A DNA stretch of 64,000 nucleotides from Candidatus Marinacidobacterales bacterium (GTDB lineage Bacteria > Acidobacteriota > Vicinamibacteria > Marinacidobacterales > SMYC01), in contig OZ250169.1 of NCBI GenBank assembly GCA_965237955.1, positions 6,720,001-6,784,000 on the forward strand, in the 5' to 3' direction. How positions within the stretch are numbered: the first letter of the stretch is position 1; the number at the start of each line of letters is the position of its first letter. This document shows, piece after piece, positions 6,181 through 12,823 of the stretch. Position numbers and translations under genes: made by a program. The notes under the pieces are model-generated. The model saw only the letters and a program-made list of their open reading frames with translations. It searched no databases and had not been told where the DNA came from.

Positions 6181-7747
6181 CCGCGCTCCCCTCCTGGGCA
6201 TCCGGCGCTTCGTCTCCCGCATCTCGATCCGACTGCTCGCGTTCAACGTTCTTCTCGTTTTCCTCCCGCTCGCTAGCGTCTCGTACCTGGAAATCTACGA
6301 ACGAAAACTCCTGCAAGCGCAAGAGCAATCGATGGTCCAGCAAGCGCGCGTGCTCGCCGCTGCACTTTCCGAGCGAGGAGCAATCGCCGAGACGCTGGTC
6401 GAGCCTATCCTCGTCCGTCTCAATCAGCGAACGACATCGCGTATCCGTGTCATCAACCAAGAACACCGGCTCGTCTCCGACACCAGCCTCCTCGGACCTC
6501 AGCGCGAGCCCGGACGGGACGCTAGAGAAGACGAAAGCGTGCGCTCGAGCTGGATGTACCGGCTCGGCTCGTCGCTATTTCGATTCGTCGATACCATCAT
6601 CGCCGGACCCGGACCCGTCATCGGCGAGGAGTTCTACTCGGCGGAGCGTCGCTTCGACGGCGCCGAGATCGAGCTCGCGTTCAACGGACAATACGGCGCC
6701 GCGACGCGCATCACGCCCGGAGGCCAGCGTTCGGTAACGCTCTACAGCGCGCTCCCGGTCGAAAACGACGGAGCGGTCACAGGCGTCGTTCTCGTCTCTC
6801 AGTCGACGTTCCAAATTCTCCAAGACCTCTATGAAGTTCGACTCGAGATCTTCCGTTTTCTTCTCGTGGCCGTCGGTGTCGCCGCGGTCTTGAGCCTTTT
6901 GGTATCGACCACCATTTCGCGTCCGCTGAAGCGTCTACGTCGTCAGGCACTGGCGATTCTCGACCGCCGCGGACGTCTCACCGGCCGTTTCAAAGGCTCC
7001 GAACGCCTCGACGAGATCGGCGATCTCAGCCGCTCGCTCTCGGAGCTTTCCTCCCGCCTCGAAGAGCGAATGCATTTCATCGAGTCCTTTGCCGCGGACG
7101 TTTCGCACGAGTTCAAGAATCCCCTCGCCTCGATGCGCTCGGCGGCGGAAATGCTTGCCGAGGTCGAAGACCCCAAAGAGCGCGAGCGTTTCGCGCGCAT
7201 CGTCGAAGTGGACATCGCGCGGCTCGAGAAACTTCTTTCCGAAGTCCGGGAGATCACGCTTCTCGACAGGTCGACAGCTGAGGATGACGCTGAGGATGAC
7301 GGGCTCCCCGGCCCCGTCGATCTCAACGCGGTCCTCAGAGGGGTGGCGGGACGAGAACGCTATGAGTCCGTCGAGCTCGAGCTGGATCTCGCCGAGGGTG
7401 AAGTCGTGGTCGCGGCCGGTCCCGATCGGCTAGCGCGCGTTTTCGAGAACTTGATCGATAACGCCGTTGGTTTCTCGAAGGACGGTCACGTTCGGGTGAG
7501 CTCGAAAGTGGAAGGACGTGAGGCTCTCGCCGTGGTCGAAGACAACGGGCCCGGCATTCCCGAAGAACACGGCGACAAAGTGTTCGACCGCTTCTTCAGT
7601 TTCCGACCCGACGGGACACCGTCCGAGCACAGCGGCCTCGGTCTCGCGATCGTGAAGGCGATCTTGGAGCGACGCGGCGGCAGCATCCGCACCGTGGCCT
7701 CGACGCTCGGCGGCGCCGGCTTCGAAGTCCGGTTGAAACTCGCTTAG
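6164..7747 (+). CDS. ChvG/CreC-like sensor histidine kinase
   Basis: Two TM helices, HAMP, H-box DVSHEFKNPL, N box ENLIDNA, G boxes DNGPG and GLGLAI. Confidence 0.93.
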   Translation: MSTKADRAPLLGIRRFVSRISIRLLAFNVLLVFLPLASVSYLEIYERKLLQAQEQSMVQQARVLAAALSERGAIAETLVEPILVRLNQRTTSRIRVINQEHRLVSDTSLLGPQREPGRDAREDESVRSSWMYRLGSSLFRFVDTIIAGPGPVIGEEFYSAERRFDGAEIELAFNGQYGAATRITPGGQRSVTLYSALPVENDGAVTGVVLVSQSTFQILQDLYEVRLEIFRFLLVAVGVAAVLSLLVSTTISRPLKRLRRQALAILDRRGRLTGRFKGSERLDEIGDLSRSLSELSSRLEERMHFIESFAADVSHEFKNPLASMRSAAEMLAEVEDPKERERFARIVEVDIARLEKLLSEVREITLLDRSTAEDDAEDDGLPGPVDLNAVLRGVAGRERYESVELELDLAEGEVVVAAGPDRLARVFENLIDNAVGFSKDGHVRVSSKVEGREALAVVEDNGPGIPEEHGDKVFDRFFSFRPDGTPSEHSGLGLAIVKAILERRGGSIRTVASTLGGAGFEVRLKLA

Positions 7748-7844
7748 ACCGAACCCGCCTTCTCCCTCGCCGAAGCTTCACATGAAGGCTGGTGGGGGCG
7801 CCGGGCACCAGATTCGGGTGGCCGTGTGGCGTCGTGCTTTGGAC

Positions 7845-7864
7845 AACTGTGTCCGGACACAGTT
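7845..7864. repeat. perfect 20-bp palindrome AACTGTGTCCGGACACAGTT, with degenerate copies at 8577-8596 and 9141-9153
   Basis: Read directly; the internal copy matches 17/20 and the terminal copy 12/13. Confidence 0.85.
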
Positions 7865-8095
7865 AGGCGTGAACGCTCGATAAAAAAAGTTAGAGAGAAA
7901 CTATTTTTTTCTTGACAGCTTTTTCGAAGCGCTTTGATAAAAAGTGCGGGTCCGATCTGTGATGTGTCTGTGCGCGCGTCAGAGCAACGATAGACGCGTT
8001 GTTTTTACTGTCGAGACTTTGAAAGACCCTTTATGTCTTTGCGCTTGATGTGAGCGAACCACAGGCGACAAAAAAGTCCATGCTATAAGAGGCTC

Positions 8096-9160
8096 ATGAA
8101 TAACAAAGACGATTTGAAATCGCTTTCCGACGACGAGTTGCTTCGTCGCTTGTCGGATGTGTTGGCGCAGTCGCGACGCGTGGAGTGGGTTCTCGTTGCA
8201 CACATCGCTGAAGTCGATGCGCGTCGTCTGTATGCGCGCGAGGGCTCGCCTTCCATGTTTCAGTACTGCCAAGACGTATTGCATTTGTCGGAGTCGGAAG
8301 CCTATCGACGTATCGCTGCCGCTCGTGTCTCACGCAGCTACCCCGTGATCCTGAAGATGCTCGAGGATGGACGCCTTCACTTGGCCGGCATCTCGGTGCT
8401 GAAAAAGCATCTAACGGATTCGAATTACGAAGACGTTTTGACTAGAGCAACGCACAAGACGAAGAGTCAGATCGAAGAGCTCGTGGCCGAGTTGGCTCCA
8501 AAGCCGGATGTTCCACCGAAGATTCGCAAGCGACCGCAACGCATAGCCAAGTCCGAGTCGCCGAAGTCTGTGCCCGAACTAATTCCGGACACAGTTGAGC
8601 AAACTGCTCCGGCAACGAAGCCAGAGCCTCCGGCGTCCCTTGAGAAGCCGGCCACCGTCGAGCAACTGGCACCAGCTCGCTACAAAGTGGAGTTCACCGC
8701 GAGCGAGGAGCTCCGCGACAAGCTCAGGCGACTCGAAGCACTCATGCCCGACTGCAACCTAGCCGAAGTCGTCGAAGCGGCCGTGATGGAGAAACTCGAG
8801 CGTCTCGAAGCCAAACGCTACGGCAAGACGAATAAGCCGAGAAGGAACCTCGAAGACGCCGATACGTCACCGGGCGTGCGCGGCATCGCCGCTCCCGTCA
8901 AGCGCGCCGTGTGGGAGCGCGACCGTGGCCAATGCACTTTTATCAACGGCAACGGCAAACGCTGCCCCGAGCGCTACAGGCTCGAGTTCCACCACGACGA
9001 GCCCTACGCGCTAGGCGGCGATCGAAGCGCAGACAACATCCGGCTGCTCTGTCGAGCCCATAATGCCTACATGGCGGAGATGGACTACGGCAAAGCCAAG
9101 ATGGACCAGTTCCGCGCCTGCGAACCCAAGCCTACGTTCGAACTGTGTCTGGAAGCTTGA
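8096..9160 (+). CDS. HNH endonuclease with DUF222-like helical N-terminus
   Basis: N-terminal HIAEVDARRLY...SMFQYC...LSESEAYRRIAAAR; C-terminal VWERDRGQC...LEFHH...GG...NIRLLCRAHN. Confidence 0.88.
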   Translation: MNNKDDLKSLSDDELLRRLSDVLAQSRRVEWVLVAHIAEVDARRLYAREGSPSMFQYCQDVLHLSESEAYRRIAAARVSRSYPVILKMLEDGRLHLAGISVLKKHLTDSNYEDVLTRATHKTKSQIEELVAELAPKPDVPPKIRKRPQRIAKSESPKSVPELIPDTVEQTAPATKPEPPASLEKPATVEQLAPARYKVEFTASEELRDKLRRLEALMPDCNLAEVVEAAVMEKLERLEAKRYGKTNKPRRNLEDADTSPGVRGIAAPVKRAVWERDRGQCTFINGNGKRCPERYRLEFHHDEPYALGGDRSADNIRLLCRAHNAYMAEMDYGKAKMDQFRACEPKPTFELCLEA

Positions 9161-9433
9161 GACTCCGCCGATGCCATCGCGGCGGCCCCGCGGCCCTACA
9201 ACCTGTTGCCCGGAGCACCCGCTGCCCATCGCCCACACATCGAATCACCACGGCGCGCAGTCTGTGTCAAGGTCGGCGAAGCCGCCGAGCGAAGCGAAGG
9301 TAACCTTGACACGCGCGAGCACCGTCTTATCGGGCGATGGCCTGTCGGTTTCTCATGGACGGGCGCCGAGAAGGCGCGCGGGCAAATTCCACTATCAGAA
9401 ATCGCTCGGGAGTTTGTTGTGCGGATTCAGAAG

Positions 9434-9960
9434 TAACAAAAAAGCCAGATACAAGACCTGCACACTACCTCGAATTCCTCTCAAAGCTTTACAAGCTCGC
9501 TGCCGATTTTGATCAGAGGCAATTGATGTGAATTCGAGAGACTGCCGCCAAAGAGGACAACGATATCGTTGCCAGTATTGCGGCAGCGTTGCTGCGCCTC
9601 CGTACTCCCACCAAGCCGGCACGCGTGTCTTCAGTGCCTTCTAGGCGGCACGGAGATTCCGGCGTCGACGGCCTACGCGAAGTTCTTTTGTCGAGGAAGA
9701 TATTCCCGTCTAACTCAAAACTTCTATCGCTCGCGCATCGTTATTTTGGCCTACCCCCGAAGCCGAAGGAGTCTCGTGAACGTCTCGCTGGACGGATTCT
9801 TCGCGGAATCGAAAAGGGCACGGTTGTGCAGCAAGAGTCGTTCCGCCATGCGCTTGAACAGCATATTGCGAAACAGAACGTCGGCTCCGACTTCGTTTCT
9901 CGCTGGACAAAAGTGATCCGGGATCTCCAACCCCACACGGGATGTCGCGAAACAAACTGA
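9434..9960 (+). pseudogene. hypothetical protein with an in-frame TGA at 9529-9531
   Basis: ORFs 9337-9531 and 9589-9960 share a frame and read continuously across one stop (DFDQRQLM*IRETAAKEDNDIVASIAAALLRL). Start is approximate. Confidence 0.4.
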
Positions 9961-9975
9961 GCGCGAGGGCCTCTA

Positions 9976-10102
9976 GTCCCCTGGATCTTTGATTACTATA
10001 CAAAGTTAGGCTTTTCGCCAGCCCATAAGATTCATAAGATTCATGCACTTAGAATGGTTTCGGCAAGCTCTGCTTTATCTAGTTTGTTCTGATACAGGGG
10101 AC
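9976..10102. mobile_element. 127-bp MITE, copy 2 (inverted relative to copy 1)
   Basis: CTAG at both junctions; 2-3 substitutions versus the other copies. Confidence 0.9.
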
Positions 10103-10262
10103 TAGCGACTTTGAGATCATATGGTCGCGCTATTCTGGAATTATCGACGACCGAATTGAAGAGCCAAGTAAAGTAAAGGCGCTTGTTCGTGCAGTTCACA
10201 AATTCGCCTTCGTAACTACAATCCTGAGTAAGATCGAAGTTCTCCGCCCAGAACACCAGCGT

Positions 10263-10499
10263 CTCTTCCTATACGCCCAGCTTGCTGAAGACGTTCAAGG
10301 ATTCCTTGCTCGGTTACGCTCTTCGACTGGCATACTGAGCATCAGAGAAAGGCAACGAGTTCTTCGTCTGCTCGTAAAGGAGGTGCTGGTCAGCCTTGAA
10401 GCCATACACATCAAACACTCTATCCCTGTCCCTCCCACCGCATTCCGGGAGCGTCGTCGCGATGGGGCTCCACTCCAAGTAATCTTTTGCGTTCGGGGC
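10263..10499 (+). pseudogene. C-terminal remnant of a large serine recombinase
   Basis: Hand translation LAEDVQGFLARLRSSTGILSIRERQRVLRLLVKEVLV...IHIKHSIP...LLRSG resembles the tail of recombinase-family proteins; no start codon or catalytic domain. Confidence 0.6.
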
Positions 10500-10587
10500 G
10501 CCAAGACGCGAAGGCGCAAAGAACCCGAGTCGAGTAAACCAAAGTGAACCCGAACCCTTTGCGTCTTTGCGACTCTGCGCCTTTGCG

Positions 10588-10589
<2 letters not shown>
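10497..10589. repeat. REP-like inverted doublet (ACGCAAAG/CTTTGCGT family), left arm truncated
   Basis: Right arm 10557-10589 matches 31527-31559 at 32/33 and overlaps the ligA stop. Confidence 0.8.

Positions 10590-12823
<2,234 letters not shown>

Follow-up and report, generated by a model that had tools for sequence, protein, structure and literature searches.

Palindromes flank a single nuclease gene in the REP/REPIN-RAYT and IS200/IS605 systems, whose HUH transposases act on looped single-stranded hairpins, and the free-standing HNH homing endonucleases of phages cut alleles without their gene at one locus. For the multicopy DUF222-like HNH genes of the REP13E12 type, we know of no established mechanism of spread. 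With regard to transcription, sigma-70 promoters typically have spacers of 16-18 bp, TG-extended -10 promoters do not need a -35 box, and looped regulation is known from sigma-54 enhancers. In ParB and Noc, the recognition helix enters the major groove of the palindrome, and four residues switch specificity (PMC7383237). REP13E12 is listed as repetitive elements in PMC10589994.

The unit studied here lies in the 8.1-Mb genome G000, within the 64,000-nucleotide stretch of DNA that was analysed (the window), and has a two-component kinase gene on one side and a convergent ligA gene on the other. Its features are collected in Table 1. The elements listed in an earlier sequence-only reading of this DNA, namely the perfect palindrome, its 17/20 copy in the linker, a 12/13 copy at the gene end, TTGACA, TGnTATAAG and the ORF, are all present in the sequence. 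Across the family, the left palindrome is positioned at approximately -230 to -280. The gene-end site, which in the window matches at 13/20 positions overall with 3/10 pairs, is a full palindrome in many homologs. We put at even chances the reading that the unit is a transposase-free selfish element that binds its own palindrome, cuts nearby with its HNH domain and has its gene throttled by a DNA loop.

Table 1. Features of the unit, with positions in the window; domain assignments are predictions.
Feature	Position	Strand	Remarks
PAL-L (left palindrome), perfect 20-mer	7845-7864		Likely operator of the encoded dimer and likely left boundary of the unit, judged from sequence
A-tract then T-tract before the -35, UP-element-like; insertion place of IS481-type elements in sister copies	7882-7911	+	
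-35 hexamer TTGACA, consensus	7912-7917	+	No -10 at 16-18 nt
Spacer, fixed 166 nt, variable sequence	7918-8083	+	RR/YY and WW/SS steps with a period of ~10-10.25 bp
Extended -10, TGn-TATAAG (here TGC-TATAAG)	8081-8089	+	ATG follows after 6 nt; mRNA predicted to be leaderless
ORF, 354 aa, ATG at 8096	8096-9160	+	Predicted dimer helix, ParB-like HTH, linker, ribbon-helix-helix (RHH), HNH nuclease
Helix, aa 12-43	8129-8224	+	Antiparallel dimer interface in the predicted complex
Predicted HTH, aa 54-81	8255-8338	+	Residues 67 and 71 (codons at 8294 and 8306) vary together with positions 5-7 of the palindrome
Linker palindrome, 17/20 versus PAL-L	8577-8596		In-frame ELIPDTV (aa 161-167), low-confidence Pro-rich linker
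RHH-like domain, aa 194-241	8675-8818	+	Second dimer interface (model)
HNH nuclease domain, aa 258-335	8867-9100	+	
Decayed right palindrome	9141-9160		12/13 on the left arm (9141-9153)
Right flank, in the G000 subfamily a degenerate inverted repeat of the DNA on the left of PAL-L	9199-9316		Short arm here at 7794-7814

Alignment of the leaders reveals two conserved islands, TTGACA with A/T tracts before it and TGn-TATA near the start codon, and between them lies divergent DNA of constant length. Under a single rule for the 204 loci whose upstream DNA was long enough, some of which are close kin, the distance from -35 to -10 was 164-169 nt in 139 loci, 176 nt in three and another value in two, and no distance was found in 60; a distance of 15-19 nt occurred in 0/204. 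A genome-wide spacing scan of G000 gave 166 as the sole peak, with 12 matches, 11 of them at the HNH gene family. Paralogs with approximately 32% identity keep the same arrangement, with TATAAT or TATACT at 165-166. After removal of redundancy at 60%, the 74 spacers share 31% identity, close to random between clades, and all measure 164-168 nt. Across phyla, the upstream box hardly departs from a sigma-70 -35, and a promoter scan of 7700-9400 returned no promoter on the + strand. Read from these sequence features, the leader is a split sigma-70 promoter, and subtraction of the canonical 17 from 166 gives a predicted DNA loop of ~149 bp. The sequence-only reading overlooked this fixed separation of 166 nt, although both boxes were listed there; its suggestion of a leaderless mRNA is supported by the spacing, which is general in the family.

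The spacer also carries a period of 9.75-10.25 bp in purine, RR/YY and WW/SS steps, which was first noticed among six features and then tested. None of 1000-2000 column shuffles reached the purine period, the close set (37) and the far set (37) show it in the same phase, and both period and phase were repeated in an independent metagenome set (27). A downstream control, which is less exactly anchored, is without the period. The three leaders of 176 nt form one clade (69-71% identity) that is sister to copies with 166/167 nt. They are one helical turn longer, no intermediate lengths were seen, and the +10 shift counts as a single evolutionary event. A DNA loop closed by protein would be expected to leave just such traces, namely a constant length, bendability in phase and a jump by one turn. 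We lean slightly towards the view that one sigma-70 holoenzyme occupies both boxes and that the loop, depending on DNA topology or on a protein, restrains a toxic nuclease; that the RHH domain or host HU/IHF closes the loop is speculation.

A further arrangement of the same element would treat the boxes as two separate sites, with a complete extended -10 for the gene and with TTGACA and its A/T tracts docking a second RNA polymerase or another protein that regulates the -10 promoter through an in-phase loop. An extended -10 could act without a -35, as TG-extended promoters do, which tells against the one-holoenzyme reading, and the fixed length, the period and the +10 clade show phasing only, not one sigma on both boxes. 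On the other hand, the upstream box is conserved across phyla as a sigma-70 -35 and never has its own -10, the 15-19 spacing being absent from all 204 copies. We consider two separate sites, the main rival reading, unlikely and continue with a single holoenzyme that would span the looped spacer.

Several other contents of the spacer were considered and rejected. The separate small RNA suggested by the sequence-only reading did not materialise: there was no Rfam match, folding z-scores were -0.6 (mean) and -0.4 for 30 spacers, and as to a covarying stem, the best 4-bp stems were paired in fewer than half of the sequences. The two spacer ends pair at -7.5 kcal/mol with their own partner versus -7.2 kcal/mol with a shuffled one (sd 0.2), with 1/14 offsets at z 2.8. 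A hidden peptide is contradicted by the lack of a 3-nt period, by lengths that vary by single bases and by frames that are open in at most 21/59. Histone wrapping was also rejected, PF00808 being found in 0/41 genomes and in 3/14 controls; with no histone-fold gene found in the 41 genomes, any protein that wraps the DNA would presumably have to be RNA polymerase, HU/IHF or the RHH domain. Three LexA motifs occur in 0, 2 and 0 of the 74 leaders versus 0.2-0.9 by chance.

In Pfam, the 354-aa protein matches HNH (PF01844) with an E of 3e-4, at its cut-off, and DUF222 with an E of 4e-3 (16.8 bits versus a cut-off of 24.4). Among 75 family members, HNH and DUF222 were the only Pfam matches, and DUF222 was weak in 17/75 (E<=0.01; best E 7e-7). 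Judged by these profile matches, the gene family is a distant relative of the DUF222/REP13E12 HNH family. NCBIfam gave no match for the protein, the PADLOC profiles (library dated 2023) gave 0 matches for four proteins, and the IscB model matched the HNH part alone in two homologs (19-20 versus 175 bits). The AlphaFold2 model, built with a 75-row alignment, has a pLDDT of 88; its N-terminus is one long helix, and Pfam gave no match to the ParB N-terminal (CTPase) domain. The best structural matches of residues 25-143 are the DNA-binding domains of ParB (on parS) and KorB (Z 6.5, rmsd 5.2 and 3.6, ~100 residues aligned), while residues 258-335 match HNH nucleases, including the GVE2 HNH endonuclease (Z 6.0, rmsd 3.1, 75 aligned), the Z-scores of both parts being middling; HNH effectors are among the weak fold matches. 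Folded alone, the middle domain matches mostly ribbon-helix-helix proteins (Z 3.5-4.0), and weak sequence matches to pCXC100 ParB (3NO7) agree with this fold. Foldseek gave no match at E<=0.001, and an Atlas search with the RHH part alone gave no usable match.

The homodimer prediction scored 0.79 versus 0.00 for the best control, the mark being one that 20/30 solved homo-pairs and 1/23 single chains reach and to which resemblance to solved RHH dimers may contribute. The dimer runs have at least 27% of contacts in common and a pLDDT of at least 66, and the predicted interfaces are helix 12-43 and residues 194-241. The models thus support a homodimer with a ParB-like HTH, a linker, an RHH domain and an HNH domain. 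In the HNH part, residues C280, C290, H300, C319 and H322 are invariant in alignment A1, and among 137 proteins H300 is found in 134, H322 in 130 and N323 in 131.

Members of the HNH gene family are present in 26/41 searched genomes, at 2-51 matches per genome, and in 0/14 genomes of one family of the same order. G000 has 31 matches. The leader is common to 11 G000 copies, of which four keep an ORF ending in CxxHN, and a fifth leader-bearing copy is full length without CxxHN. Three frameshifted G000 paralogs with approximately 32% identity are located at G000:C1 5497844, 4887465 and 5224165; paralogs at this distance have a different perfect palindrome (ATCTCG...CGAGAT) further into the gene, after the RHH region. 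Between intact G000 copies, dN is well below dS (A versus B, 0.05/0.63 in the N-terminal part and 0.12/1.23 in HNH). One protein search yielded 4,298 proteins at E<=1e-10 among 7,994 scored, and a second yielded 18,477 representatives at E<=0.001. The titled loci belong to Acidobacteriota, Armatimonadota, Eisenbacteria and a few other groups, the same palindromic site is found in several phyla at 35-45% protein identity, and an Atlas search indicated protein clusters of Myxococcota and Bdellovibrionota. A phylum-wide search was positive in 3/251 genomes with only seven candidates scored per genome, so it carries little weight. The viral contigs and plasmids searched gave no matches to the family, and a scan of a genome contig collection with a single protein found nothing. 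In general, the family is large, multicopy, patchy and often decayed.

These properties bear on a second alternative, in which the product would be a defence or addiction nuclease, the palindromes would be autorepression operators, and the split promoter would be a sensor closed by a bending protein of an invader or induced by stress, with passive spread through IS elements and recombination of kinase genes. The purifying selection on intact HNH, the HNH effectors among the weak fold matches, the frequent IS elements inside the unit and the kinase genes near 4/18 G000 loci (0.76 expected) are consistent with such a function. It is opposed by the dispersal of up to tens of copies per genome, many of them broken, by the lack of a PADLOC or NCBIfam match for the protein and of a conserved partner gene in the loci viewed, and by the linker and 3'-end palindromes, which are superfluous for simple autorepression. 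A defence or addiction role is decidedly unlikely in our view, and the selfish element remains the reading that we prefer.

The palindrome has the consensus AACT-nnn-TCCGGA-nnn-AGTT. A single perfect 20-mer is unremarkable, as about 11 are expected by chance in G000, and 134 perfect palindromes of at least 18 nt were listed. All 14 genome-wide matches in G000 (<=4 mismatches), three of which lie beyond an inserted IS, are located at copies or fragments of the HNH gene family, and the linkage between palindrome and gene therefore exceeds chance. Among homologs, upstream palindromes occur in 44/198 loci, linker palindromes in 69/228 and palindromes at the end of the gene in 75/218, compared with 1/222 and 2/227 for control windows placed within the gene, and 132/187 fully flanked loci have it in at least one of the three places. 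As the sequence-only reading had proposed, the palindrome belongs to the HNH gene, at three recurrent positions. Five genomes have 12-34 palindromic sites each versus 4-12 for the reversed control. When 20 sites were chosen for their distance from listed matches, 15 had no tblastn match within 1.6 kb, and at least one such 'solo' site belongs to a truncated gene copy whose break coincides with the linker palindrome. Another genus (L074, G011:C59) has, at the orthologous place ~110 nt past the kinase stop, a single near-copy that is one base short of the palindrome; no HNH gene lies within 1.5 kb of this near-copy, which is a possible scar or target.

The variable bases of the palindrome pair across the arms in 106/129 cells of 43 distinct linker sites, compared with a shuffle mean of 64 and a maximum of 83. 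In the 110 loci whose site was good, after removal of one misframed row, the highest mutual information in non-linker columns was obtained for residue 67 with site positions 5 and 6 and for residue 71 with position 7; in a smaller first set, residue 67 ranked 4th and 8th. H67 is accompanied by G6 in 47/47 cases and N71 by T7 in 8/8, and A/P/G/S67 by C or T in 38/42 of the rows counted on the tree, the large and small residue classes at 67 having been picked after data inspection. Residues 67 and 71 share a face of helix 66-81, the predicted recognition helix. A phylogenetically independent test, on a tree built without the tested columns, gave 4:0 in favour on five well-supported pairs (p 0.125, not significant). 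The co-variation of palindrome and gene for which the sequence-only reading proposed a test is seen, in that residues 67/71 track site positions 5-7. Because the variable bases follow these two residues, the palindrome is likely the protein's own double-stranded site rather than a REP hairpin, and the covariation of the recognition helix together with the predicted dimer better explains the symmetry of the arms, one dimer reading both half-sites. Based on the sequence and the models, it is very probable that the encoded dimer binds its palindrome.

A hairpin or RNA system like REP/RAYT, Ssn/NTS or IscB, with a palindrome acting as a single-stranded hairpin and a leader acting as a small RNA, would likewise produce pairing of the variable bases (106/129, above the shuffle maximum), and it fits the weak IscB-type HNH similarity in two homologs and the 15/20 selected remote sites without a nearby gene. 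The pairing, however, is accounted for by the recognition-helix covariation; in addition, the palindrome is without a loop, no Rfam match or conserved stem was found, and the sites number in the tens, at least one 'solo' site being a gene remnant. Such a system is very improbable, and the REP/RAYT analogy of the sequence-only reading fails in detail, since there are tens of sites rather than hundreds, the dimer explains the symmetry, and the enzyme is not an HUH transposase. Scarcely credible is an excision switch, whereby loss of 149 bp through the nuclease would bring the boxes together as a normal promoter, for although 166 minus 149 equals the canonical 17 and some copies have short inverted ends on the spacer, a spacing of 15-19 occurs in 0/204 loci, the spacer ends do not covary, and the 176-nt clade exists.

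By alignment of six close copies (G025, G033), the boundaries of the unit may be placed. Homology begins at the left palindrome; on the right, it ends at the 3' palindrome in two copies and extends ~25-100 nt in the others, as read by eye from part of the alignment output. Other subfamilies start nearer to TTGACA, without the left site. No general terminal repeat or target duplication was found outside the palindromes in 17 two-ended loci. Long terminal inverted repeats were rejected as general ends, being real in the G000 subfamily and absent from the 17 other loci, as is the inverted flank arrangement of the 9199-9316 type. In 16/16 relatives, there is no HNH match within 1.5 kb after the orthologous kinase, and ligA is located there in 8/16; the 2.8 kb at this place in G000 is therefore lineage-specific, the relatives being other genera that provide no exact junction. 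Most relatives have a small membrane-protein-like ORF between the kinase and ligA, which was not seen by eye in G000 (window 7748-10587). Five flank searches gave no exact pair of empty and filled alleles, the sole shared locus (L008/L270) reflects vertical inheritance, and the contigs of seven sequencing runs listed no circle or inversion joint, the short skips listed in them resembling other family members. As far as its sequence allows a judgment, the unit looks like a mobile element with the HNH protein as its only enzyme. The mobile unit with end sites in the sequence-only reading is supported at the left edge, where homology starts at the palindrome in the six close copies, and in the HNH protein as apparent sole enzyme; the right edge is ragged.

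Other mobile sequences and repeats surround the family copies. An IS481-type element (a putative name, given from sequence features) is located ~10 bp upstream of TTGACA in eight G000 copies, always antisense, compared with three copies elsewhere (G000:C1 1989011-1990390, 4885138-4886514, 5576921-5578292, 5696766-5700237, 6231159-6234658, 6560032-6561421, 5205995 and 1522090). Two of the eight are end remnants, and one copy has a second IS in between. The end of this element resembles the palindrome core, and the element looks as if it targets this leader. A second IS, with a small AbrB-like gene and a transposase, is presumably IS1182-like by its sequence features; it inserts at the palindrome edge with a short duplication (G000:C1 7105128-7107088, 6673058, 7121334, 6970402 and 5304517-5306575) and has its own promoter with ordinary 16-18 spacing. 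At 9973-10101 in the window is a 129-bp MITE-like repeat with 119 blastn matches in the genome, several of them identical, and the strain of run X5 has a precise empty site for it (joint 9972 to 10102). A dispersed repeat lies at the ligA end (10501-10600; 68 blastn matches, ~85% identity), and a GTCAAGG...CCTTGAC hairpin repeat is found at 9229-9325 (29 matches in the genome), with an inverted copy left of two sister copies. Ser/Thr kinase genes often abut family copies, within 1.5 kb at 4/18 G000 loci versus 0.76 at random (maximum of 4 in 300 draws) and at 11/140 other loci (e.g., L041, L046, L052, L053 and L055).

From these elements, a mechanism may be proposed. The predicted homodimer would use its HTH to bind all three palindromes, those of the two ends and that of the linker. 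Once bound, its HNH domain would nick or cut the DNA near the palindromes, and host repair or recombination would then copy the unit to new places, such that the sharp left edge at the palindrome and the ragged right edge would be products of cut-and-repair spread. On the side of expression, one sigma-70 holoenzyme would touch both boxes across a bendable, in-phase loop; transcription would occur only when the ~149 extra bases between -35 and -10 are looped out, and the looped promoter would hold the toxic nuclease at a low or condition-dependent level. Spread by HNH cleavage at or near the palindromes followed by host repair is, on the sequence evidence, fairly probable in our estimation. Against it count the ragged right edge, the many copies that are missing the left palindrome (44/198 have it), the lack of an exact pair of empty and filled alleles in the five flank searches, and the lack of a circle or inversion joint among those listed in the contigs of seven runs.

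Taken as a whole, we tentatively propose, at slightly less than even chances, a new transposase-free mobile class, in which an HTH-RHH-HNH dimer has a reprogrammable code of two residues and one polymerase bridges a sigma-70 promoter split by 166 bp. The 17-bp spacing between -35 and -10 is a basic rule of bacterial transcription, and a natural family in which several phyla keep the boxes at a distance of 166 (or 176) bp, separated by a spacer with the period of the helix, points to an unrecognised promoter control. If the proposal is correct, the promoter would sense DNA topology or a wrapping protein, and the looped ~149 bp would be selected for bendability. In addition, the family offers a testable handle on the spread of multicopy DUF222-like HNH genes, and a compact nuclease of ~350 aa, whose site measures 18-20 bp and whose residue-to-base code can be read, could find use as a new tool for site-specific work on DNA. 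In the literature searched, which was largely open-access, neither the palindrome code nor the split promoter was found described.

The family resembles several known systems in part. No cognate palindromes or split promoter were found reported for the REP13E12/DUF222-HNH genes of mycobacteria, and no comparable split promoter was found in the literature searched. With these genes the family shares multicopy, dispersed HNH genes and a weak DUF222 similarity, whereas the present protein lies below the DUF222 cut-off. RNA-guided HNH systems (IscB/HEARO) differ in that there is here no Rfam match and no covarying stem and the IscB similarity is limited to the HNH part. Classical IS elements differ as well, since the present unit has no DDE, serine or tyrosine recombinase domain and no general terminal repeats or target duplication. 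REP/RAYT and IS200/IS605 resemble it in the palindromes flanking one nuclease gene; unlike REP/RAYT, it has no HUH/Y1 domain (Pfam, 75 members), a loopless palindrome, and not hundreds of free extragenic sites. Compared with ordinary sigma-70 promoters, the consensus -35, the extended -10 and the UP-like tracts are alike, and the core boxes are 164-169 or 176 nt apart. With homing HNH endonucleases the present element would have in common a likely spread through HNH cleavage and subsequent host recombination, but its sites stand next to its own gene, its copies are scattered over many unrelated places of the chromosome, and the viral contigs and plasmids searched gave no match. Ssn, as described in PMC11893778, is likewise a stand-alone nuclease gene tied to a cognate repeat (NTS-SRM), with specificity that varies among homologs; Ssn, however, is a GIY-YIG enzyme that cuts single-stranded DNA and has its repeat in hundreds, whereas here an HNH domain is combined with HTH and RHH domains, there is no GIY-YIG match, and tens of sites lie mostly at gene copies. 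Finally, ParB-parS, Noc-NBS and KorB have a similar HTH fold and, as predicted for the present family, a two-fold dimer on a palindrome with a specificity that few residues switch (PMC7383237 for ParB and Noc), and pCXC100 ParB (3NO7) also has a C-terminal RHH dimer domain; unlike ParB-parS, the present family gives no CTPase-domain match, is fused to HNH, is multicopy and carries its sites around and inside its own gene.
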